This document shows, one piece after another, positions 5,915 through 48,502 of a stretch of DNA of 64,000 nt. Origin of the DNA: Smithella sp. M82 (GTDB lineage: Bacteria; Desulfobacterota; Syntrophia; Syntrophales; Smithellaceae); assembly GCA_001683985.1 (NCBI GenBank), contig MAEO01000227.1:4958-68957 (forward strand), given 5' to 3'. The translations under genes and the position numbers were made by a program. The notes under the pieces are model-generated. The model did not search any database. It saw nothing but the letters and a program-made list of their open reading frames with translations, and was not told where the DNA came from. Every line of letters starts with the position of its first letter. Positions within the stretch are counted from its first letter, which is position 1.

Positions 5915-7114
5915 ATGATAAGTTTTAAAGTATCTGATATGGAAAAACAGGTTGCGGATTTAATCCATGGTATGGCCAAAGATATCATGAGACCGATTGC
6001 ACGATATTATGACGAACACGAACATCAAAGACCGACAGAACTGGAGCCGTTTCGCGTTATCATGCAGGCGGGAGGAATGGGAACAGGCAGAAAAAAGAAA
6101 AGCGGCGAAAAAAAGGAAATTAAAGTAACCGACGATAAGATTGGCGCAAATGCAATGTCTATTACCGGGGCCGAAGAACTGGCCTGGGGCGATGTCGGGT
6201 TGATGCTGGCCCTGCCGGGACAGGGACTGGGAAACGCAGCCATCAGTGCGGTAGCTACTGATGAACAATATGAGCGTTTTGGAAGCAAGTATGCCGCCAT
6301 GGCTATTACCGAACCGGGTTGCGGATCGGATGCCAGCGCCGTCAGCACGACAGCCGTTCTTGATGGCGACGAATATGTATTGAATGGGGAAAAAATATTT
6401 GTTACCGACGGCGATCGCTGTGAAGTAGTTGTTGTCTGGGCTACCCTCGATAAGAGTAAGGGTAGAAATGCAATTAAATCCTTTGTCGTGGAAAAAGGCA
6501 CACCGGGCCTGACCGTAGGTAAACTGGAACATAAGTGCGGCATCCGGGCGTCAGATACCGCAGTGCTGATTTTTCAGGATTGCAGAATACCAAAAACCAA
6601 TATATTGGGCGATCCGGAAATAAGACCCGAAGGCGGCTTCAAGGGTGTTATGGCGACTTTTGATGCCACACGTCCATTGGTTGGCGCTCTGGCATTGGGT
6701 TGCGCAAGAGCCGCTTATGAGTTCACCAAAGAAGCCCTGGCTAAGGAAGGCATAGAAATCCGATACGACAAACCTCTCGTTAAATTAAGCGCTATTGAAA
6801 AAGACATGCTCTGGATGGAAGCCCAGTTGGAAATGATGCGCGTCATAATACAAAAGGCTGCATGGATGGCCGATAATGGCCGGCCGAATAATTTGGAGGC
6901 GTCCATGGCCAAGGCCAAAGGAGGCAAGGCAGGCAATCTAATTGTTCAGAAGTGTGTTGAGATCCTTGGACCTATCGGCTATTCACAGAGATATCTGCTG
7001 GAAAAATGGATGAGAGACAATAAGGTCAATGATATTTATGAGGGTACGCAGCAGATTCAGATGCTGGTTATCGCAAGGCGTATCCTTGGTTATGGAAGAG
7101 ATATGCTTGCTTAA
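5915..7114 (+). CDS. acyl-CoA dehydrogenase
   Basis: 399-aa ORF with canonical ITEPGCGSD and DIYEGTQQIQ motifs. AAGGAGGAG RBS; starts 22 nt after the previous ACAD. Confidence 0.9.
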   Translation: MISFKVSDMEKQVADLIHGMAKDIMRPIARYYDEHEHQRPTELEPFRVIMQAGGMGTGRKKKSGEKKEIKVTDDKIGANAMSITGAEELAWGDVGLMLALPGQGLGNAAISAVATDEQYERFGSKYAAMAITEPGCGSDASAVSTTAVLDGDEYVLNGEKIFVTDGDRCEVVVVWATLDKSKGRNAIKSFVVEKGTPGLTVGKLEHKCGIRASDTAVLIFQDCRIPKTNILGDPEIRPEGGFKGVMATFDATRPLVGALALGCARAAYEFTKEALAKEGIEIRYDKPLVKLSAIEKDMLWMEAQLEMMRVIIQKAAWMADNGRPNNLEASMAKAKGGKAGNLIVQKCVEILGPIGYSQRYLLEKWMRDNKVNDIYEGTQQIQMLVIARRILGYGRDMLA

Positions 7115-7140
7115 AAAAAATAAGAAAATTAAATTGTTTG

Positions 7141-7176
7141 GTGGCTTGCGTGTTTTCATGTAAGCCACTTTTTTTA
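7141..7176 (+). terminator. Rho-independent terminator after the ACAD pair
   Basis: GTGGCTTGC (7141-7149) pairs with GTAAGCCAC (7160-7168), including one G-U pair, followed by a run of 7 T. Confidence 0.6.
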
Positions 7177-7345
7177 AAGTAATTTCATTCTTTTTATCTA
7201 TCTTCATAATTATAAGCAAATCAATAGTATTCTTCGTTCACTTCTCAAATAAAAAATCAATTAACAACTGGAAATTTGTAATCAAATTGTGTTATTCATC
7301 ATGCAAATATGATATAAATTGAAATGATTTTTAGAGGAGGCAATT

Positions 7346-7816
7346 ATGGCAGACTTGTCAAAGCTGGATATGGAATTCCCTGCTTATACTTTCACAATAG
7401 AAAAAGACAAAGTAATTGAATTTGCCATTGCTGTTTCTCAAAAAGAAAATAAGGAACAAATAAACCCGATTTATTACGACGAGGAAGTTGCCCGCAAGGC
7501 AGGATACAGAGGAATACCAGTCCCGCCAACTTTCCCGACCTGCTCTTTCTTTTGGACAGGCGGCGGACTAATAGGTACAGTTAAAGCTTTGGGAATTGAT
7601 TTGAGCAGGCTGTTGCACCGGGAAGAAGAATACGAATATTTAGGCAACATTTACGTCGGTGATGTCATTACCCGTAAAATGAAAGTTATCGATATGTCAA
7701 AAAAAGTGAGCAGAAACAAGGTTGTGGAGGTTACTATCCTGGAAACGGAATTGATAAATCAGCTCGGCGAATTGGTGCTTAAAAACCATACAAAATTAAT
7801 GGAAATAGGAACATAA
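7346..7816 (+). CDS. MaoC-family hot-dog protein, N-terminal-type (non-catalytic partner subunit)
   Basis: 156-aa ORF, GAGGAGG RBS. Hot-dog-sized, lacks the D-x-N-P-x-H hydratase motif, and sits 2 nt upstream of the catalytic half. Confidence 0.7.
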   Translation: MADLSKLDMEFPAYTFTIEKDKVIEFAIAVSQKENKEQINPIYYDEEVARKAGYRGIPVPPTFPTCSFFWTGGGLIGTVKALGIDLSRLLHREEEYEYLGNIYVGDVITRKMKVIDMSKKVSRNKVVEVTILETELINQLGELVLKNHTKLMEIGT

Positions 7817-7818
7817 AT

Positions 7819-8268
7819 ATGGCTCTAAATTATGATGATATTGAAGTCGGGGATAAAATGCCTGTTTATACATCCGCCCCGATTACCAGAACACATCTTG
7901 TCCGTTATGCCGGAGCTTCCGGTGATTTTAATCCGCTTCATCATGATCAGACTTTCGTTAAAACAATAGGCATGAAAAATGTTATAGCCCACGGTATGTT
8001 AATAATGGGTATTGCCGGCGAGGCCGTTACTTCCTGGATAGAAAATAAATATCTAAGAAAAATTAACGCCCGTTTTTTAAGCATGACAGAGCCCGTAGAT
8101 CTGGACGACATCGAAAACACAAAAAACCGGGCAACAATCATCGTCAGCGGTGAAGTAGTAAAAAAATTTGAAGAAAACGGCGAAAAAAGAATTCAGTGCG
8201 ATATAATTGCTCAAGATGCTTTAGGAAGCAAAAAACTTTCGGGATTTTTTATCGCAGCTTTGCCTTAA
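7819..8268 (+). CDS. MaoC-like (R)-specific enoyl-CoA hydratase, catalytic subunit
   Basis: 149-aa ORF with the hydratase-2 motif YAGASGDFNPLHHD. Confidence 0.8.
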   Translation: MALNYDDIEVGDKMPVYTSAPITRTHLVRYAGASGDFNPLHHDQTFVKTIGMKNVIAHGMLIMGIAGEAVTSWIENKYLRKINARFLSMTEPVDLDDIENTKNRATIIVSGEVVKKFEENGEKRIQCDIIAQDALGSKKLSGFFIAALP

Positions 8269-8321
8269 CAAGCCAAACTTTACAAGCTGGTCGCTTTATC
8301 AAAAATAACAACAGGTAATTT

Positions 8322-9662
8322 ATGAAGTCCCATATTTTAGTGATTGATGACGACGCGGTCGCCTGTGAATTTTTACAGGAAGCTCTTTCGCTTGACGGCT
8401 ATGATGTAAAAACTTATACATCCGCCAAAGAAGCTTTAAAGCAAGACCTCTCACAGTACGATCTGCTAATGTCCGATATTCGTATGCCTGAAATGGATGG
8501 TTTGCAGTTTTTAAATGAAGTGCACAAAACATGGCCGGATTTGCCGGTTATTCTTATGACCGCTTACGGTTCTCTGGAAACGACTATGGAGGCTATAAGT
8601 CTGGGAGCGTGGGATTATATAAGCAAGCCATTTTCTCCTGAAGATTGCCGGACTATTGTTAAAAAAGTATTGGAAGTCAGGGAACTTCGTGAAAAACGCC
8701 TGAAACTTGATTTATCCGAGGCAGATAAAGCACCGGCATTACTGGGATCATCAGCAGCCATGGTAGAGTTTTACAAACAGATTGCCCGTGTCGCCGATGC
8801 CTCTGCCAGTGTATTAATCGAAGGTGAAAGCGGTACAGGAAAAGAATTAACCGCCCGATCTTTGCACAATATGTCCTCCAGAAGGGAAAAACCTTTTGTT
8901 GTGGTTCATTGCGGAGCTATTCCCGATAATTTGCTGGAATCGGAACTGTTCGGATACGAAAAAGGAGCATTCACCGGCGCCAGTCATCAACATATCGGGT
9001 TACTGGAATCAGCAGAAGGCGGAACTGTTTTTCTCGATGAAATTACGGAAATGTCAACAGCCTTACAAGGCAAATTTTTACGGTTTATGCAAAACGGTGA
9101 AATAAGAAAAATCGGCAGCCACGACGTTCGGCATGTTGCCGTGCGGGTGGTTGCGGCAGCGAATAAAAATATCGACCAGGAAGTGAATGCCGGCCGTTTT
9201 CGTCTGGATCTGTTGTACAGATTCATCGTGCGATTGCATGTTCCGCCCTTGAGAGAACGAAAAGAAGATATTCCTTTGCTTATCGAATCAATGCTGAAAA
9301 AATTCGGTTATCCCAATGTACGCATTTCCGTAGAAGCAATGGAATTACTGATGTCTTATGATTGGCCGGGCAATGTCCGGGAGATGGAAAACGTGCTTCA
9401 GCAAACTCTTCTGTTATCTCCCTTTGCGGTTATTTTACCGGAAAATCTGCCGGTGCGCTTTCAACAGCAACAAGAGCTTGTAAAAAGTAACGCTCCATAC
9501 GAACTTTCGCCGCTGGAAATTGCCGAAAGAGAAAAAATATTACAAACCTTGCAGGCAACTCTCTGGAACCAGTCCAAGGCAGCTCATATTCTGGACATTG
9601 ATCGCAAAACTCTACGTATGAAAATCCGCCGTTATGGATTAATCAGCGAAAAAAAATCATAA
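8322..9662 (+). CDS. sigma-54-dependent response regulator (NtrC family: REC + AAA+ + Fis-type HTH)
   Basis: 446-aa ORF. REC domain (LVIDDD...DIRMPEMDG), Walker A GESGTGKE, GAFTGA motif (GYEKGAFTGA), C-terminal HTH NQSKAAHILDIDRKTLRMKIRRYGL. Confidence 0.9.
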   Translation: MKSHILVIDDDAVACEFLQEALSLDGYDVKTYTSAKEALKQDLSQYDLLMSDIRMPEMDGLQFLNEVHKTWPDLPVILMTAYGSLETTMEAISLGAWDYISKPFSPEDCRTIVKKVLEVRELREKRLKLDLSEADKAPALLGSSAAMVEFYKQIARVADASASVLIEGESGTGKELTARSLHNMSSRREKPFVVVHCGAIPDNLLESELFGYEKGAFTGASHQHIGLLESAEGGTVFLDEITEMSTALQGKFLRFMQNGEIRKIGSHDVRHVAVRVVAAANKNIDQEVNAGRFRLDLLYRFIVRLHVPPLRERKEDIPLLIESMLKKFGYPNVRISVEAMELLMSYDWPGNVREMENVLQQTLLLSPFAVILPENLPVRFQQQQELVKSNAPYELSPLEIAEREKILQTLQATLWNQSKAAHILDIDRKTLRMKIRRYGLISEKKS

Positions 9663-9708
9663 AAATTAATCTTGATTGTTGTCGTGAAATCAATAAGAGT
9701 GCTTAGAG

Positions 9709-11262
9709 CTATGTTGGAAAATAATTTTCCTGCCGGGCTATCGGCAAATTAAGAATTACTGAAGTTCCTTGCCCCTGAACACTTTTTATTTCCAATGTTC
9801 CGCCGTGAACTTTGATTATGTCGCGTACAATGGCCAGCCCCAGTCCACGCATACCTTCATCCTGTTTTGTACTAAAAAACGGTTCGCAACCTTTTTCGAC
9901 AATCTCATGTGCCATTCCTACCCCCGTATCAGTGATAATTATTGATTCAAAGCTTTTAGTGGAGAGATAATTAACCGATATATTGATTTCTCCACCTTCA
10001 GGCATTGCTTCAAGAGCATTTTGAATTAAATTCATCAGCGCAGTTTGAATACGATAACGATCCACATATAAAGGTTTAACATTTTCGTCGATATCCACTT
10101 TCATTTTTACTTTATTCTTCTGCATAAAAGGTTCGATAAGCGGCAAAGTCTCACTTAAAATTTGCTGAATAGTCAAAACTTCAAAATGCGGTTCCGGAAG
10201 GCGCGTGGCTTTGCGCACATTTTGAATTACATTATCCAATCGTTGAGTCTGCTGTATAATTAAATTAAGCTTATGCGCTACATCGGGCGGCCAGCCTTCT
10301 TTTTCTAAAAGGAGTTTAGCCAACCCGCCAATGGAATGAAGCGGTGTGCCCAAATCATGAGCCAGAATGGCCGTTAACTGACCCAGGGCGGTTAATTGTT
10401 TCAAGTCCGTAACCTGTTTCTGTAACTGAACCACCTTGATTGTTTCTTCGCGGATACGGTCCTCCAGATGCTTATTTAGTTCCAGATACCTGGTCATCAC
10501 TTCCTGAATTTCATCAGCCATGACGTTGAAGTGTTGGGATATCTGCCCCCATTCGTCATTCCGAACGATAGGCATTCGATTAATATATTGTCCCTTTTGA
10601 AACTCATCAATCGTTTGAACAATTAACCTCAGAGGTTTTTCAATTATCCAACCGTAACTTAATCCTAATATAAAAAGAATGAACAACAATAAACCGATAC
10701 TGCTGATAACGAGTAATTGTTGGGCACGGTTCATAATCTCGGCATTCATGCGCGAAAAACCAATGATACCCACAACTATATGAGAACTTTTTGTATTTCC
10801 AGAAACAGGATAAAGTAAACCCAATGCCGGACCGCCTTCCGTTTCTATTTTAACATAACGCACATTACCTTTGGCATTGACGGAGGCAACAATATTTTCC
10901 GGCCATTCATATGGTACACGGCTTGCACCGGCCACGTAATCAACATTGCCATGATTGATATCAAAAATATCAATTCTCGCCAGACGAACATCAGATTGGA
11001 TAAAGTCTTTAAGAGCTGAATCAAGGGCAAGAAGTCCGCGCCTTGTAGGAAAATATTGATAAAACGTGCTGATCGTATCAGCTACGCCTTCAAGTCTTTT
11101 TACCTGTTGATCAATCAATATTTTATCCAAAGCTGTAAGCTGAACGATACCCCAAATAGTCATAGTTAGAGCAAGACCTACTACCGTTAACGCCGTCAGC
11201 CTTACTCGTACTGTCAAGTTATAGTTGTAAGTAATTATTCTATCGAAGATTTTTTTAAACAT
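9709..11262 (-). CDS. sensor histidine kinase (2 TM, periplasmic sensor domain, HAMP, HisKA, HATPase_c)
   Basis: 517-aa ORF. TM helices near residues 22-45 and 183-205, H-box AILAHDLGTPLHS, N-box LIQNALEAM, G-boxes DTGVGM and GLGLAIV. Confidence 0.85.
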   Translation of the reverse strand: MFKKIFDRIITYNYNLTVRVRLTALTVVGLALTMTIWGIVQLTALDKILIDQQVKRLEGVADTISTFYQYFPTRRGLLALDSALKDFIQSDVRLARIDIFDINHGNVDYVAGASRVPYEWPENIVASVNAKGNVRYVKIETEGGPALGLLYPVSGNTKSSHIVVGIIGFSRMNAEIMNRAQQLLVISSIGLLLFILFILGLSYGWIIEKPLRLIVQTIDEFQKGQYINRMPIVRNDEWGQISQHFNVMADEIQEVMTRYLELNKHLEDRIREETIKVVQLQKQVTDLKQLTALGQLTAILAHDLGTPLHSIGGLAKLLLEKEGWPPDVAHKLNLIIQQTQRLDNVIQNVRKATRLPEPHFEVLTIQQILSETLPLIEPFMQKNKVKMKVDIDENVKPLYVDRYRIQTALMNLIQNALEAMPEGGEINISVNYLSTKSFESIIITDTGVGMAHEIVEKGCEPFFSTKQDEGMRGLGLAIVRDIIKVHGGTLEIKSVQGQGTSVILNLPIARQENYFPT

Positions 11263-11300
11263 GGTTTGTTTATATCAAAAATAGAAACAATTCACTAGTG

Positions 11301-11342
11301 ACAAACAAAAAGAAGGAGCAGGTTTAACCCTGCCCCTTCTTT
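11301..11342 (-). terminator. Rho-independent terminator after the small secreted-protein genes
   Basis: On the minus strand AAGAAGGGGCAGG/CCTGCTCCTTCTT form a stem with one mismatch, followed by TTTTTGTTTGT. Confidence 0.55.
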
Positions 11343-11370
11343 GAAAGCGCATAATGATTTTTTTATAAAC

Positions 11371-11613
11371 TTATTTTGCAGCGGGAACGGCTTCTTCAGC
11401 AGCCTTCTCTTCGTCTCCCTTTGCTTTCTTCGCTTTTTTGGCTTTCTTTACTTTCTTTTTCTTTACTTCTTTCTTTACTTCGGCTTTTGCCGGTTCAGCT
11501 TTTTCTACAGCGGGAGCGGCGGCAGCAGGAGCTGCAGCGGGTTCGTCAGCCGCCATAACGGTTGTACAAAATGCGAAAACCAATGCAACAACAAACAATA
11601 CTAAACGCTTCAT
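11371..11613 (-). CDS. small secreted Ala/Lys/Glu-rich low-complexity protein (unknown family)
   Basis: 80-aa ORF, AGGAGG RBS 8 nt upstream. Signal peptide MKRLVLFVVALVFAFCTTVMA|AD, mature part contains KKEVKKKKVKKAKKAKKAK. Confidence 0.6.
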   Translation of the reverse strand: MKRLVLFVVALVFAFCTTVMAADEPAAAPAAAAPAVEKAEPAKAEVKKEVKKKKVKKAKKAKKAKGDEEKAAEEAVPAAK

Positions 11614-11706
11614 CTTTAAATCCTCCTTAAAAAATTTGTTTTATTTTAATACCACCCTCTAAAATTAAGGGACTCCCACAACTTTTTCATGAAAATGCTT
11701 TAATCT

Positions 11707-12057
11707 CTAATGGGACTTTATTTCTTTCTGCTTGAATGTAACTTTAACCACTTTTAATGCTATTAATTTTCCATCTTTTTCTACATATGCTATTTTTACA
11801 AAATCATTCACAGCAATATTTTCTGCAGGTTTTTCTAAAGCAAACTCCATATATTCCACATCACCCTTTACAGTACGTTCAATTTTCACTGACTCATCAG
11901 AAATTTCTACAACCTTACCTGTCGCATGCATTTTAGCGGCTTTAACAATATTTGGCTTAACCGCATCGGCCTTAACAGTGGAAGCAGGCCTATCAACGGC
12001 AAAAGCAAAAGTTGACAAAATAAAAATTAAGCCAACTACGTACAAAGCTTTCTTCAT
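11707..12057 (-). CDS. small secreted protein (unknown family, predicted beta-rich)
   Basis: 116-aa ORF, GGAGA RBS. Signal peptide MKKALYVVGLIFILSTFAFA|VD. A sigma-54 promoter lies 38 bp upstream. Confidence 0.65.
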   Translation of the reverse strand: MKKALYVVGLIFILSTFAFAVDRPASTVKADAVKPNIVKAAKMHATGKVVEISDESVKIERTVKGDVEYMEFALEKPAENIAVNDFVKIAYVEKDGKLIALKVVKVTFKQKEIKSH

Positions 12058-12094
12058 GATTAACTATCTCCGCAGCATTTCGAACGCACATATA

Positions 12095-12110
12095 AGCAAC
12101 TAGTATGCCA
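12095..12110 (-). promoter_or_regulatory. sigma-54 (-24/-12) promoter TGGCAT-N5-TTGCT
   Basis: The minus strand reads TGGCATACTAGTTGCT. GG and GC have the exact consensus spacing of TGGCAC-N5-TTGCW. It lies about 38 bp upstream of the ATG at 12057. Confidence 0.6.
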
Positions 12111-12202
12111 TCGAAAGAATTTTAATAATTATTTATAAATAATTGAAATTATTAATTATTTTTTTTCAATGTGCAGCGCCACTTTGCTTTTTTTAGGTAA
12201 AC

Positions 12203-12238
12203 GATGAATAATTCCCCGGAGCTGGGGAATTATTCATC
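12203..12238. promoter_or_regulatory. Perfect 15-bp inverted repeat (6-nt spacer), candidate enhancer-binding-protein UAS
   Basis: GATGAATAATTCCCC ggagct GGGGAATTATTCATC. It lies about 95-130 bp upstream of the sigma-54 promoter, separated by very AT-rich DNA. Confidence 0.4.
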
Positions 12239-12361
12239 AAACATATTCCTGATTTTTATGGCAAATCTATAAAAACTGAATTCCCAAAGAAATTATATTA
12301 TGCGCGATTGACCGTCGATATCCTTTCATGTTACGTCTAAACAAAATATGGAAACAAACAC

Positions 12362-13699
12362 ATGATTGAAGAAAAAATGGATTGGGATATTATTGTCGTG
12401 GGAGGTGGAGCCTCCGGTCTTATGGCCGCGGGCCGTGCAGCGGAATGCGGCGCAAAAGTTTTACTAATCGAGAAAACAGACGGTTGCGGCAAAAAAATTC
12501 TGGTCAGCGGCAAGACGCGCTGCAACCTGACCAATTCGGCTGATCTGAAAAATTTTGTTTCCATGTACGGCAATAACGGCCGTTTTCTTTTCAGCGCTTT
12601 TCATAAATTTTTCCGTCCCGAACTACTTAACTTCTTAAATAAGTACGGTCTGCTCACCAAATTAGAACGCGGCGGCAGAATATTTCCTGTCTCCGATAAC
12701 TCTCATGATGTTTTACGAATCTTTAAAAAGTATCTCTCCATTAATAATGTGCAAATAAAACTAAACACTAAAGTCAACGGCATTACGATAAAAGATAACG
12801 CTGTTTGCGGCGTTAAAACAGAACACGGAAATTATCATTGCAAAGCTGTTATCCTGGCAACAGGCGGCGCTACCTGGCCTTCCACCGGATCTACCGGCAA
12901 CGGTTATAAAATCAGCGCCGCGCTCGGGCACCATATAGAGAAACTTAAACCTGCCCTGGTGCCGCTGATCGTAAAAGAGCAGAAACTTGCAAAATCCATG
13001 CAGGGAGTTAGTTTACGTAACGTACGAGTCACAGCTTTTCAGGGTGAAGCAGTCTCAATCGATTCTAAATTAACGCCTGATTGCGTTTACGGGCGCGGTG
13101 AAAAGAAATCTCCACGTCCCCCAGTAATTGAAAGCCGTTTCGGAGAAATGCTCTTTACTCATTTTGGATTAGGCGGCCCGATTATTTTGCTGATAAGTCT
13201 GTCTGTTGTGGAAGCACTGGAAAAAGGCCCGGTGTCTTTATTAATTGACCTAAAGCCGGCTCTGACCCGTGAACAGCTTCATAAGCGCCTGCAACGGGAT
13301 ATGGATAACTCCAGTAAAAGAAAAATCAGCGGCATCATCAAAGAATATCTACCCGCCAAAATGATTGAACCGTTTATCGATTTAACCGGCATTGATAAGG
13401 AAAAACTGGCTCATCAGATAACAGCTGCCGAAAGAGGAAAGATTGTCGAGCTTTTCAAAGCTCTGCGTTTCAATATAAAAGCGCCTTTATCACTTGAAAA
13501 AGCCATAGTTACTGCCGGAGGCGTTTCGCTTGATGAAATAGACCAGCGCACGATGGTTTCCAAGCTGATTAAAGGATTATACTTTTGCGGAGAGCTTATG
13601 GACATTGACGCCGATACCGGCGGTTATAATTTGCAGGCTGCTTTCTCTACCGGCTATCTGGCCGGCGAAAAAGCCGCCGAATATGCAATCCATCTCTAA
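12362..13699 (+). CDS. NAD(P)/FAD-dependent oxidoreductase, HI0933/BaiN-like flavoprotein
   Basis: 445-aa ORF. N-terminal dinucleotide fold DIIVVGGGASGLMAAGRAAECGAKVLLIEK, then GKKILVSGKTRCNLTN, typical of the HI0933 family. Confidence 0.8.
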   Translation: MIEEKMDWDIIVVGGGASGLMAAGRAAECGAKVLLIEKTDGCGKKILVSGKTRCNLTNSADLKNFVSMYGNNGRFLFSAFHKFFRPELLNFLNKYGLLTKLERGGRIFPVSDNSHDVLRIFKKYLSINNVQIKLNTKVNGITIKDNAVCGVKTEHGNYHCKAVILATGGATWPSTGSTGNGYKISAALGHHIEKLKPALVPLIVKEQKLAKSMQGVSLRNVRVTAFQGEAVSIDSKLTPDCVYGRGEKKSPRPPVIESRFGEMLFTHFGLGGPIILLISLSVVEALEKGPVSLLIDLKPALTREQLHKRLQRDMDNSSKRKISGIIKEYLPAKMIEPFIDLTGIDKEKLAHQITAAERGKIVELFKALRFNIKAPLSLEKAIVTAGGVSLDEIDQRTMVSKLIKGLYFCGELMDIDADTGGYNLQAAFSTGYLAGEKAAEYAIHL

Positions 13700-13835
13700 A
13701 TCAAAGCGCTCTCTTTGTTGGCACAGCCTGCCCCGGCGAAGGCCGGGGTCGTCAGTTTCCTCAACGTATTACTTAATATGCCTCGTCACATCTTCATCGC
13801 CGCTTCGATATCATCTTTGATTTAAAAACGGAATT

Positions 13836-13885
13836 ATGTATTGTGTCCCTTAAATTTTGAATGTATTGTGTCCCTTAAATTTTGA
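13836..13885. repeat. Exact tandem duplication of a 25-bp unit (ATGTATTGTGTCCCTTAAATTTTGA x2)
   Basis: 13836-13860 and 13861-13885 are identical by direct reading. Located in a convergent intergenic region. Confidence 0.9.
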
Positions 13886-13900
13886 AATACGACTTGGTAC

Positions 13901-15259
13901 TTAGCTAATGAGTGGCGTAAAGATTTCGCTCAGCGTCGGATGTGCGATTACCCAACTGCACAATTGTTTTTTGGTTAATTCATTGGAAACTGCGAGAGTA
14001 AGTGGAGCAATCAGTTCCGCCGCATCTTCACCGACAATCGTTGCGCCGATAAGTTTGTCCTCGTAAAAGATTGCCTTGACAAACCCCGGCCCCATCAATT
14101 CCGCACGAGCGATAATATTGACGCTGTACTGGGATTTCACAACTTCCACGGATAGACCTTCGTCTTCCACCCTCTTCTGTGTGTAGCCGACGCGCGCGAT
14201 CTGCGGATGACTGTAAACAATCGAAGGAATGACATTCTCGTTATAAGGGAAGTCTCCGTCGCCAAAAATATTTTTCGCGGCAAATTTTGCCTGATGCTCC
14301 GCCCGGTGCGCCAGCATCATTCCACCAGTAACATCGCCCACAGCATAAATACCGGCGACATTCGTCATCATTTTTGAATCTACCTTGATTCCGGCTTTTG
14401 TATATTCAATACCGAGTCTGTCCAGCTCTTCCGTATGCAACAGAGGCTTTCTGCCTGTGCAAAGAAGCGCGTAATCGGCGCTTATTTCCAGTTGTTTGCC
14501 TTCCTTTTGCGCTGTCATCACAACTGAATTGCCTGTGACTTTCAGGCTCTCCAGTTTTGTAGAAGTGTTAATAGCGACACCCATCCGGGTCAATTCCTGT
14601 TTGAGCAAATCGGCACACTCCTGATCTTCCAGGGGAATGATTCTGTCTAAAATTTCCACAATGGTTACTTTCGTGCCCAGTTCGGCAAAGAAGGTGGCAA
14701 ACTCTACACCAATGACACTCCCGCCGACGATAATAATGCTCGCCGGAAGCGTATTTAAATTCAAAATGCCGTCCGATGTTAAAATCCTTTCAGAAAAATT
14801 TACGCCCGGAAGCACCTGCGGCACAGAGCCCCAGGCAATCATGATATTTTGAGTTTGGAAATTTTCATTTTTCCCCGACGAATCGGTAAAACGAACTTCC
14901 GCAGCAGAAATAACCTCGCCGACGCCCTGTTTGATTTCCGCTCCCGCATCGGTGAGCAGTTTCTGCGCGCCCAGAGCGGATACTTTCACAATCTGCTGCT
15001 GGTGTTTTTTGACGGCGGCAAAATCAACGGACGCCTCGACAATATTTATTCCCATCCTCTTGAGTTTTTTCAAATCGGCAAAATGCTTGCTGCACGCCAA
15101 TAGCGCCTTGGTCGGAATACAGCCTCTGTGCGTGCAGGTGCCGCCCCAGCCGTTTTTTTCAATGATGAGAACTCTTTTTTTCTTCGCCGCCGCAACTTCC
15201 GCCGCCGCAACTCCCCCCGGCCCTCCACCGATAATTATTAAATCATACTTTTCTGACAC
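13901..15259 (-). CDS. lpdA: dihydrolipoyl dehydrogenase (E3 / L-protein)
   Basis: 452-aa ORF. FAD fold DLIIIGGGPGG, redox-active disulfide GGTCTHRGCIPTK, C-terminal HAHPTLSE motif. Confidence 0.85.
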   Translation of the reverse strand: MSEKYDLIIIGGGPGGVAAAEVAAAKKKRVLIIEKNGWGGTCTHRGCIPTKALLACSKHFADLKKLKRMGINIVEASVDFAAVKKHQQQIVKVSALGAQKLLTDAGAEIKQGVGEVISAAEVRFTDSSGKNENFQTQNIMIAWGSVPQVLPGVNFSERILTSDGILNLNTLPASIIIVGGSVIGVEFATFFAELGTKVTIVEILDRIIPLEDQECADLLKQELTRMGVAINTSTKLESLKVTGNSVVMTAQKEGKQLEISADYALLCTGRKPLLHTEELDRLGIEYTKAGIKVDSKMMTNVAGIYAVGDVTGGMMLAHRAEHQAKFAAKNIFGDGDFPYNENVIPSIVYSHPQIARVGYTQKRVEDEGLSVEVVKSQYSVNIIARAELMGPGFVKAIFYEDKLIGATIVGEDAAELIAPLTLAVSNELTKKQLCSWVIAHPTLSEIFTPLIS

Positions 15260-47599: not shown

Positions 47600-48502
47600 T
47601 TATGGTTGAAAGTATTTAAAATGAGTTTCCAGCAGGCGGTGTTTGTCAAAATCTTTGAGTTTCAGATATTCAGGCGTTGTTCCGGCAAAAGCGCATTCCG
47701 GTGCAAGACCGACTAATTCCGATTCCAATATTTTTATGCCGCCTTCAGTCGCCAGGATCTTCACCCGGTCAAAAACAGTTTTCAGCGGCGTTTCTTTGCA
47801 GTCGATTAAATTAACGGATACCTGCGCCAGTCCGCGGCTTTTCAACATTACTCCAATAGCCCGCACAGATTTCAATCCGCCGCCTTTTTCTCTGATTTTC
47901 GAAGCGATATATTTTGCCAGATGTAAATCATCACTGGCCAGATTGATATTATAAGCAACCAGTAAATCTCTGGCGCCAACGACAGCAGCGCCGGAACGTA
48001 CGTTGAATTGTTCCCCTCCTTCGTCGGGAACAGCCTCTTTTAAGGTAATCTTTTCTGCCAATCCTTCATATCCGCCGCGCCTGATATCAGGCAATTCCAC
48101 ATACTGATCTTTTCGCGCCGCAAATCCATAAAAATATACGGAAACTCCGAAGTGTTCACTCAACTGTTTCCCAAAAACATGCGCCAGATCAACCGCATCT
48201 TTCATTTCAGCAGAACCCAATGGAATAAAAGGCACAACATCAACCGCGCCCAGCCGCGGATGGGCCCCGCCATGTTTACGCATGTCAATAAGCTCCAAAG
48301 CTTTGCCGCAGGCAGCTAATGCCGCTTTCATCACGTCTTTAGGCTTTCCCAAAAAAGTAAAAACGCTTCTGTTGTGATCGGCATCACTACTGAAATCGGC
48401 CAGCCGCACATCCGGAAATGATTTAAAAACAGCAACAATTTCCTTGATTTTTCCGGTGTCCCGTCCTTCACTGAAATTCGGCACGCATTCAATGATTTTC
48501 AT
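47600..48502 (-). CDS. glutamate formimidoyltransferase
   Basis: 300-aa ORF. The N-terminus IECVPNFSEGRD is characteristic of the FtcD formiminotransferase domain. Confidence 0.8.
   Translation of the reverse strand: MKIIECVPNFSEGRDTGKIKEIVAVFKSFPDVRLADFSSDADHNRSVFTFLGKPKDVMKAALAACGKALELIDMRKHGGAHPRLGAVDVVPFIPLGSAEMKDAVDLAHVFGKQLSEHFGVSVYFYGFAARKDQYVELPDIRRGGYEGLAEKITLKEAVPDEGGEQFNVRSGAAVVGARDLLVAYNINLASDDLHLAKYIASKIREKGGGLKSVRAIGVMLKSRGLAQVSVNLIDCKETPLKTVFDRVKILATEGGIKILESELVGLAPECAFAGTTPEYLKLKDFDKHRLLETHFKYFQP

Follow-up and report, generated by a model that had tools for sequence, protein, structure and literature searches.

In the ZraPSR system of Escherichia coli and Salmonella, a periplasm-sensing kinase and an NtrC-type activator drive the gene of a small periplasmic protein from a -24/-12 promoter equipped with an enhancer, and the zraSR genes possess a sigma-54 promoter of their own (PMC4987338). 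Here we describe a module that resembles ZraPSR in its local and compact layout, its sensor kinase, its sigma-54 activator and its small periplasmic output, and that lies in a 64-kb stretch of the genome of Smithella sp. M82 (contig MAEO01000227.1, positions 4,958 to 68,957). This stretch is hereafter called the window; it was searched over its whole length for copies of the promoter and the enhancer. We consider it probable that the module is a conserved sigma-54 two-component regulon restricted to the Syntrophales, whose output consists of two small secreted proteins, ORF116 and ORF80, with a proposed role in envelope protection. The regulatory part of this reading is strongly supported by sequence comparison, because of phylogenetic footprinting and gene linkage, and activation by the linked regulator is the step that we infer. 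The features concerned are the following:

8322-9662, plus strand: NtrC-type sigma-54 enhancer-binding response regulator (Pfam Response_reg, Sigma54_activat, AAA_lid_14 and HTH_8)
9709-11262, minus strand: sensor histidine kinase with a first transmembrane segment (TM1), a periplasmic PDC/Cache-type domain, a second transmembrane segment (TM2), HAMP, HisKA and HATPase_c (Pfam, AlphaFold2, Foldseek)
11269-11277, minus strand: putative extended -10 element of the kinase gene, TGATATAAA, read from the sequence and ending 6 nt before the ATG
11301-11342, minus strand: intrinsic terminator with a 14-bp G+C-rich stem (11309-11342), a 6-nt loop and a T-run
11371-11613, minus strand: ORF80, a secreted lysine-rich disordered basic peptide (AAGGAGG Shine-Dalgarno sequence, signal peptide, homologues)
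11707-12057, minus strand: ORF116, a secreted small OB-fold protein and remote relative of DUF5666/CusF (AlphaFold2, Foldseek, hhalign)
12095-12110, minus strand: sigma-54 promoter TGGCATACTAGTTGCT (-24 TGGCAT, -12 TTGCT), the sole exact TGGCAY-N5-TTGCW match in the 64 kb
12111-12202, no strand assigned: A+T-rich spacer of 92 bp (79% A+T) between enhancer and promoter
12203-12238, no strand assigned: enhancer (upstream activating sequence) composed of the palindromes GATGAATAATTCCCC and GGGGAATTATTCATC, a perfect 15-bp inverted repeat with arms at 12203-12217 and 12224-12238

Much of this inventory had been anticipated in a preliminary description of the same DNA. The regulator of 8322-9662, described there by its receiver (REC), AAA+ (GAFTGA-bearing) and Fis-type helix-turn-helix (HTH) domains, is borne out by Pfam and by the translation, and the periplasm-sensing HAMP histidine kinase of 9709-11262 by Pfam and by two hydrophobic segments, which enclose a periplasmic domain of ~145 aa. 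The two open reading frames (ORFs) with Shine-Dalgarno sequences and signal peptides, closed by a hairpin and T-run terminator, were found as described, as were the TGGCAT-ACTAG-TTGCT element of exact spacing at 12110-12095, the perfect 15-bp inverted repeat at 12203-12238 and the AT-rich DNA between repeat and promoter. The same description called the module ZraPSR-like; this stands for the NtrC-type system, the enhancer dyad, the sigma-54 promoter and the small periplasmic proteins, and does not extend to the kinase and regulator genes, which are not under the sigma-54 promoter.

Further differences set the module apart from ZraPSR. The regulator scores 367.5 bits against a cut-off of 760 for the ZraR equivalog of NCBIfam, and the kinase 144.9 against 479 for ZraS. 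In place of a helical PF13801/LTXXQ protein, the module encodes one protein of all-beta OB fold and one disordered polycation, and instead of a divergent, sigma-54-driven kinase-regulator operon there is a single -24/-12 element and a terminator ahead of the kinase gene. Judged from its sequence, the module works like ZraPSR and is not a member of that family, the tests for ZraR, ZraS, ZraP and autoregulation all having failed.

The two small proteins recall other described systems. Like CusF (PF11604) of CusRS-cusCFBA, ORF116 is a small Sec-exported protein of five-stranded OB fold encoded beside a two-component system; unlike CusF, it lacks the Cu(I)/Ag(I) ligand set, has no gene for a resistance-nodulation-division (RND) pump next to it and stays below the Pfam threshold. 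Moreover, the regulator of the module is NtrC-type and sigma-54-dependent, whereas CusRS is OmpR-type and sigma-70-dependent. With the small secreted beta-barrels of DUF5666 (PF18914) and DUF1344, ORF116 shares a clear remote homology, and some DUF5666 proteins also follow sigma-54 two-component systems (L040-L042 among the related loci, which carry L-numbers here); ORF116 nevertheless falls under the DUF5666 gathering score, and its family forms a cluster of its own with its own motif. We know of no function for DUF5666. YgiW and YdeI (BOF family), small periplasmic OB-fold stress proteins that are encoded beside QseBC or controlled by PmrAB/PhoPQ, also bear a likeness to ORF116, but ORF116 gives no BOF (PF04076) match, and the regulator class and sigma factor differ. 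The closest parallel to ORF80 is Asr, the acid-shock protein of Enterobacteria, described as a disordered chaperone and aggregase that aids outer-membrane integrity (PMC10746267). The two have in common a signal peptide, a short Lys/Ala/Pro-rich basic disordered chain and two-component control, while ORF80 lacks the His/Gln-rich repeats of Asr, carries a conserved APAxK C-terminus and scores below the Asr cut-off. Asr is controlled in a sigma-70-dependent manner via PhoBR or RstAB, whereas control of the module is predicted to be sigma-54-dependent. The preliminary description had assigned both proteins to an unknown family and had found neither to resemble CpxP, Spy or ZraP. The latter assessment was confirmed by the lack of any PF13801/LTXXQ match and by the all-beta model of ORF116. 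The former holds insofar as no curated model covers them, and gives way insofar as ORF116 is a remote DUF5666/CusF/DUF1344-type OB fold and ORF80 is Asr-like in composition.

The evidence for the regulatory reading begins with the promoter. By chance, 0.18 matches to TGGCAY-N5-TTGCW are expected in the window, and at least one arose in 18/100 shuffles; taken alone the match, with a predicted transcription start near 12085, is thus suggestive, and its significance comes from its conservation across loci. The related loci are among the matches listed, and all counts of loci hold as at least the number given. Thirty-two of them (~24 distinct) offered enough upstream DNA for the promoter count; the short contigs P0160, P0175 and P0214 (0.5-1.4 kb) were used for the promoter only. 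In 30/32 listed loci a -24/-12 element precedes the ORF116 homologue, at a distance of 50-105 nt from its start codon; in the window and all 11 Smithella-type loci the distance is 50-104 nt. It is likewise present in distant members of the family, which are 29-45% identical (L016, L019, L020, L022-L024, L026-L028), and in the metagenome loci L029 and L031-L038, the exceptions being L025 and L039.

A second conserved element lies upstream of the first. The enhancer is made up of two adjacent imperfect 15-bp palindromes of the type GGGGAATAATTCCCC, 21 bp apart from centre to centre, with the outer half-sites GATGAA and TTCATC in the window; the perfect unit occurs in L009, L013, L015 and L019. 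When matches to the composite motif were scored over 30 positions, the DNA upstream of ORF116 homologues reached 21-30/30, compared with a maximum of 17-20 in the control windows (other 330-nt windows of the same loci), and the motif topped every control window in 17/19 loci tested. In 20/22 loci that carry the enhancer, its centre lies 107-118 bp from the GG of the -24 element. An exact -24/-12 spacing and an activator site ~80-150 bp upstream, as is typical of sigma-54 promoters, can be read from the DNA, and two dimers of the regulator are presumed to bind at the enhancer. A search for the enhancer in the rest of the window, with the acyl-CoA island upstream of the regulator gene included, returned chance-level matches with three mismatches only, at 48002 and 57908. 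The island, which had been named earlier as a place where the regulator might bind instead, was checked and contains neither an enhancer copy nor a -24/-12 element that could serve as a second sigma-54 promoter. The spacer contains a one-mismatch match to the consensus of the integration host factor (IHF; TTTCAATTATTTA) and a recurring ATTTCAA block, and is presumed to form a bent or IHF-assisted looping region, the participation of IHF being weakly supported.

Separately from these elements, a block GATTGACC...CCTTTCATGTTACGT at 12306-12336, located between the enhancer and a divergent HI0933-like flavoprotein gene (12362-13699), is kept in L005-L009, L012 and L013, and is probably the promoter or operator of the HI0933-like gene.

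Linkage of the small genes to the two-component system provides the third line of evidence. A synteny analysis had been proposed as a check in the preliminary description, and among the 24 listed loci with enough sequence, 21 encode an orthologue of the kinase downstream of the ORF116 homologue, with an identity of 52-83% that extends to the periplasmic domain. The orthologous activator then follows the kinase in most kinase-bearing loci, even where all other neighbours are different. Kinase and regulator remain linked to ORF116 homologues within wholly different flanks in L016, L019-L021, L026, L027 and L029-L038, and the module is kept where ORF116 is only 30-45% identical. Mere inherited synteny does not account for this linkage, since the flanking genes differ completely (L016, L019-L021, L026, L027, L034). 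In L010 the kinase has been lost, with a 13-codon remnant of its N-terminus (MFDKIIAKIIAYNK*) left after the terminator at 6790-6840 of that locus, while promoter, enhancer, OB gene and ORF80 homologue are retained; the small genes thus appear to be targets of the regulation and not mere passengers of the kinase. The earlier suggestion that the two proteins are the direct output of the two-component system is, in this way, supported by the co-occurrence of promoter, enhancer, spacing, kinase and activator orthologues.

The candidate activator is itself conserved. It matches the Pfam families Response_reg (E-value 4e-28), Sigma54_activat (4e-64) and HTH_8 (3e-12), and the translation displays GESGTGKE (Walker A), GAFTGA and VFLDEI (Walker B), so that the protein has the REC domain with its acceptor Asp, the AAA+ domain with GAFTGA and the C-terminal Fis-type HTH of the NtrC class. 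Matches to NtrC, AtoC and ZraR in NCBIfam all lie under the equivalog cut-offs. It is encoded by the sole sigma-54 activator gene of the window. In the listed loci, the activators beside ORF116 homologues are orthologous (67-94% identical) and share the HTH sequence WNQS+AAQxLxIDRKTLRxKIxRYGL. L026b and L014, further activators of these loci, are ~40% identical and have a different DNA-binding helix.

The extent of the predicted transcript follows from the terminators. Strong hairpins with T-runs stand behind the small-gene cassette in L005-L012, L014-L016 and L026, and strong hairpins with little or no T-run in L019 and L028. Because these terminators end the cassette, the sigma-54 transcript would comprise ORF116 and ORF80, or the OB gene alone where an ORF80 homologue is lacking. 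Between the two genes, a block GGAGTCCCTTAATTTTAGAGGGTGG (~11655-11690, minus strand) that is nearly identical in L005-L007 holds a small CCCT(T)/AGGG stem-loop, which may act on the processing or stability of the RNA and set the ratio of the two products.

ORF116 is preceded by a Shine-Dalgarno sequence and starts with an n-h-c signal peptide ending AFA/VD. No match above threshold was found for it in Pfam or NCBIfam: its score against DUF5666 is 13.1 bits (E-value 0.12), where the gathering score is 27, the gathering score of CusF is missed as well, and a sequence search of solved structures gave weak CusF matches only (E-value 0.15). In the AlphaFold2 model, a disordered leader precedes a five-stranded barrel whose core reaches a pLDDT (predicted local distance difference test) of ~90, and the Foldseek matches of this barrel are OB folds (ribosomal S17, RPA, the LysRS anticodon-binding domain). 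Among periplasmic proteins, CusF matches best (1zeq, 3e6z; TM-score 0.66-0.67 on target), and as modelled ORF116 would have the small periplasmic five-stranded OB fold that characterizes CusF. Profile comparison with hhalign yields a probability of 59% against CusF, and of 98% when the ORF116 family profile is compared with a protein that passes the DUF5666 threshold. Among 62 family members, sub-threshold matches occur to DUF5666 in 21, to CusF_Ec in 14 (best E-value 4e-5) and to DUF1344 in 11.

The family comprises 276 close homologues and 107 clusters at 50% identity, and is a well-separated cluster with the motif M-x-A-x-G-K-V...I-E-R...E-x-M-E-F-x-L. By name, its sources are Smithella, Smithellaceae, Syntrophus, Syntrophales and 'Deltaproteobacteria' metagenome-assembled genomes; the closest species representative is Smithella sp. 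SCADC, with 80% identity for ORF116 and 94% for the regulator. One candidate, P0128 (4819 aa, 13 matched stretches), was dropped as spurious: it is a eukaryotic BRCA2-like protein whose BRC repeats (FQTASGNKVKISEQSLK) mimic ATGKVxEISxxSxK.

ORF80 possesses a perfect AAGGAGG Shine-Dalgarno sequence and an n-h-c signal peptide ending VMA/AD, and its mature form of 59 aa (pI 9.6, 17 Lys+Arg) ends ...AVPAAK. The same layout, in which a Sec signal peptide leads into a short chain that is basic, repetitive and disordered, is seen in Asr, which is also the top library match (NF033636; 27.3 bits, E-value 5e-6, under the cut-off of 50); the similarity is likely to be driven by composition. Homologues were found in L005-L010, L012, L015 and the distant L026, and the copy in L011 is interrupted by unresolved bases. 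Their common pattern consists of MKRLxLFVVALVFAFxTTVMAA, an Ala/Pro-rich stretch, KKAKK repeats, an acidic stretch and an APAxK/PAK end.

Substitution patterns indicate that both small ORFs are genes under purifying selection. In the ORF116 core, the ratio of nonsynonymous to synonymous substitution rates (dN/dS) is 0.07-0.19 in comparison with relatives whose synonymous sites are unsaturated; in the signal-peptide codons of ORF80, dN is 0.02-0.12 against a dS of 0.2-0.85, the protein being nearly invariant while synonymous sites have diverged.

A feature common to both families is the terminal lysine. The tails of the ORF116 family are basic, Pro/Ala-rich and disordered, and Lys is the final residue in 52/83 representatives (63%), compared with 19% in the preceding 24 residues (p ~2e-18). 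ORF80 homologues end in APAxK or PAK without exception (window 11371-11388; L005-L026). In ORF116 of the window itself, a 2-nt insertion at 11715-11735 on the minus strand (AAGTCCCAT, compared with AAG--CC... in L005-L007) shifts the frame and shortens the basic tail, so that the protein has 116 aa instead of the 125-126 aa of its relatives and the terminal Lys motif is gone; this is not a read error, since the identical protein is found on 6 contigs. The terminal lysine could be a docking or protease signal. It would be a long shot to count both the OB-fold and the polycationic protein as envelope effectors of a new class whose terminal lysine is a handle for peptidoglycan attachment by L,D-transpeptidases or a signal for docking to the sensor domain, with the covalent peptidoglycan attachment of Braun's lipoprotein (Lpp) as a model; if true, this would mean a sigma-54-switched change of envelope charge or tethering in syntrophic bacteria.

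The sensor end of the module was modelled with AlphaFold2 from kinase residues 1-259, in which the sensor domain forms a single PDC/Cache-type fold. The top Foldseek match is the extracellular domain of WalK (4ywz; TM-score 0.68-0.71 on target), and a homologue search with the sensor domain returned Smithellaceae fragments only and no named family. The kinase gene has no Shine-Dalgarno sequence, and TGATATA(A/T) is kept at the place of the -10-like element in L005-L009, L012 and L015. The sequence suggests that the kinase gene has its own promoter; its mRNA is possibly leaderless, because the -10-like element ends so close to the ATG and the Shine-Dalgarno sequence is lacking.

Transcribed towards the kinase gene, the regulator gene is the last of a MaoC/acyl-CoA dehydrogenase operon. 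In the region ahead of it (window 5915-8268), a gene pair for MaoC-type hydratase subunits on the same strand ends 53 nt before its start, and upstream of this pair lies at least one acyl-CoA dehydrogenase gene; the syntenic L001 and L004 have two such genes. The regulator gene shows no obvious promoter of its own, and in L026 and L028 the orthologous activator sits behind GAPDH instead; the regulator gene seems to ride on housekeeping operons. A Rfam search found no match within window positions 7000-14000.

The neighbourhoods of some related loci bear on the possible function. In L027 (5426-9837) and also in L036 and L037, the four genes that intervene between the OB gene and the kinase gene encode an aminotransferase (Aminotran_3), a CDP-alcohol phosphatidyltransferase (CDP-OH_P_transf), a GFO/IDH/MocA oxidoreductase (GFO_IDH_MocA) and an MprF-like protein (LPG_synthase_TM). 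By their sequence families, these genes would combine the synthesis of an amino-lipid head group with a flippase, which is a hint of membrane-charge control. In L026 (2806-6650), a second sigma-54 two-component system (PAS kinase and activator) adjoins the module, and a PF13801 Metal_resist (ZraP-like) gene is divergent from this second system; a true ZraPSR-type unit and the module form one island there. In L040 (605-3721), L041 (2395-5459) and L042, a non-orthologous tandem kinase-regulator sigma-54 system (regulator 38-41% identical) is followed by a secreted DUF5666 protein, and in L040 a -24/-12-like element lies 92 nt upstream. The OB core of this DUF5666 protein is flanked by K/A/E/P-rich low-complexity segments like ORF80, which links the OB-fold and ORF80-like protein types, as one polypeptide carries both.

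We propose that the kinase senses a periplasmic or envelope signal via its PDC/Cache-type domain and phosphorylates the NtrC-type regulator. The phosphorylated regulator would bind to the neighbouring pair of 15-bp palindromes, whose centre lies ~112 bp ahead of the -24 element, oligomerize, loop over the A+T-rich spacer and remodel the sigma-54 holoenzyme at TGGCAT-N5-TTGCT. The product would be a bicistronic mRNA of ~0.75 kb, ended by the strong terminator ahead of the kinase gene, from which two Sec-exported proteins would be made: a ~10-kDa DUF5666/CusF-like OB-fold protein devoid of a Cu(I) site, and a ~6-kDa disordered polycation of Asr-like composition. In the periplasm, both proteins would most likely protect the envelope under charge, acid or ion stress, and may feed back on the kinase. 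Whereas the genes, the DNA elements and their co-conservation are read directly from the sequence and its comparison, what the kinase senses and what the two small proteins do biochemically are inferences. A response to envelope charge, acid or ion stress is hinted at by the lipid genes of L027/L036, the PF13801 neighbour in L026, the fusions in L040-L042 and the terminal lysines.

Several observations weigh against this proposal. The stress-effector role leans on analogies of fold and composition, and the Asr match is sub-threshold and maybe purely compositional. The single -24/-12 match of the window arises by chance in 18% of shuffles, and L025 contains a family member without promoter, enhancer or two-component system. 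Furthermore, the loci do not share a strict IHF consensus in the spacer, the regulator gene does not adjoin the kinase gene in L012, L016 and L029, and the sole nearby activator in L014 is non-orthologous.

The small proteins, and above all the OB-fold one, might alternatively be accessory or feedback partners of the periplasmic domain of the kinase instead of terminal effectors, in the way that CpxP partners CpxA and ZraP partners ZraS. We regard this as rather unlikely, although it is compatible with the proposed regulon and differs from it in emphasis alone. In most loci the OB gene immediately precedes the kinase gene and is read in the same direction, and the conserved C-terminal Lys motif of the tails could dock to the sensor. 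The closest fold of the sensor domain is that of WalK, which is modulated by accessory extracytoplasmic proteins. Moreover, ZraP is reported to repress ZraSR (PMC4987338, citing Appia-Ayme 2012). On the other hand, L010 and L028 hold the OB gene, promoter and enhancer without a kinase gene nearby, and four unrelated genes stand between the OB and kinase genes of L027/L036.

An improbable alternative is a metal-responsive system in which the kinase would sense metal and ORF116 would be a periplasmic metallochaperone of CusF type, on the model of CusRS-CusF or of the zinc-responsive ZraPSR. The Foldseek match to CusF (TM-score 0.66 on target), the sub-threshold CusF_Ec matches in 14/62 members and the JGI label of one homologue ('Cu/Ag efflux protein CusF') would agree with it, as would the conservation of Met43 and Met70 in 50/62 members and the Metal_resist (PF13801) gene next door in L026. 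The profile alignment, however, places the CusF ligands His36, Met47 and Met49 at Arg61, Glu68 and Met70 of ORF116, and Trp44 in a gap. Since Arg61 (57/62 members) and Glu68 (59/62) replace the ligands and are nearly invariant, the alignment indicates that a CusF-type Cu(I) site is absent from ORF116. In addition, none of the loci examined has genes of a CusCBA-type pump next to it, and the Metal_resist gene of L026 adjoins the second, different two-component system.

That the promoter-like element and the inverted repeat are unrelated to the regulator (chance occurrences, or sites of another factor that controls the divergent HI0933-like gene) and that the regulator controls the acyl-CoA genes is hardly credible: the chance expectation of a single -24/-12 match (18%), the position of the regulator gene behind co-oriented MaoC and acyl-CoA dehydrogenase genes and the divergent intergenic region that the dyad shares with the HI0933-like gene could be cited in its favour, but promoter and dyad accompany the OB gene even in L019, L024, L026, L031 and L038, where HI0933-like or acyl-CoA genes are absent, the acyl-CoA island lacks both elements, and the neighbours of the regulator vary elsewhere (for instance GAPDH in L026 and L028).

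Syntrophales such as Smithella are key degraders of alkanes and fatty acids in methanogenic systems. To our knowledge, they are almost entirely uncultured and without genetics, and their regulons are unknown. Our literature search retrieved no paper that deals with the module or with the sigma-54 regulons of Smithella or Syntrophus, and incidental mentions only of DUF5666. The proposed reading would provide, for this group, a fully specified regulon with a sensor, an activator, a defined 36-bp enhancer, a promoter and two outputs, the latter representing two families of small secreted proteins that have no curated model.

Altogether, the sigma-54 logic of envelope responses, known from ZraPSR and Psp, would here be joined to effectors of different folds. 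The enhancer consensus is usable for finding more members of the regulon in Syntrophales genomes, and the OB-fold family of ORF116 could be entered in protein family databases under the DUF5666/CusF superfamily, as one of its branches.

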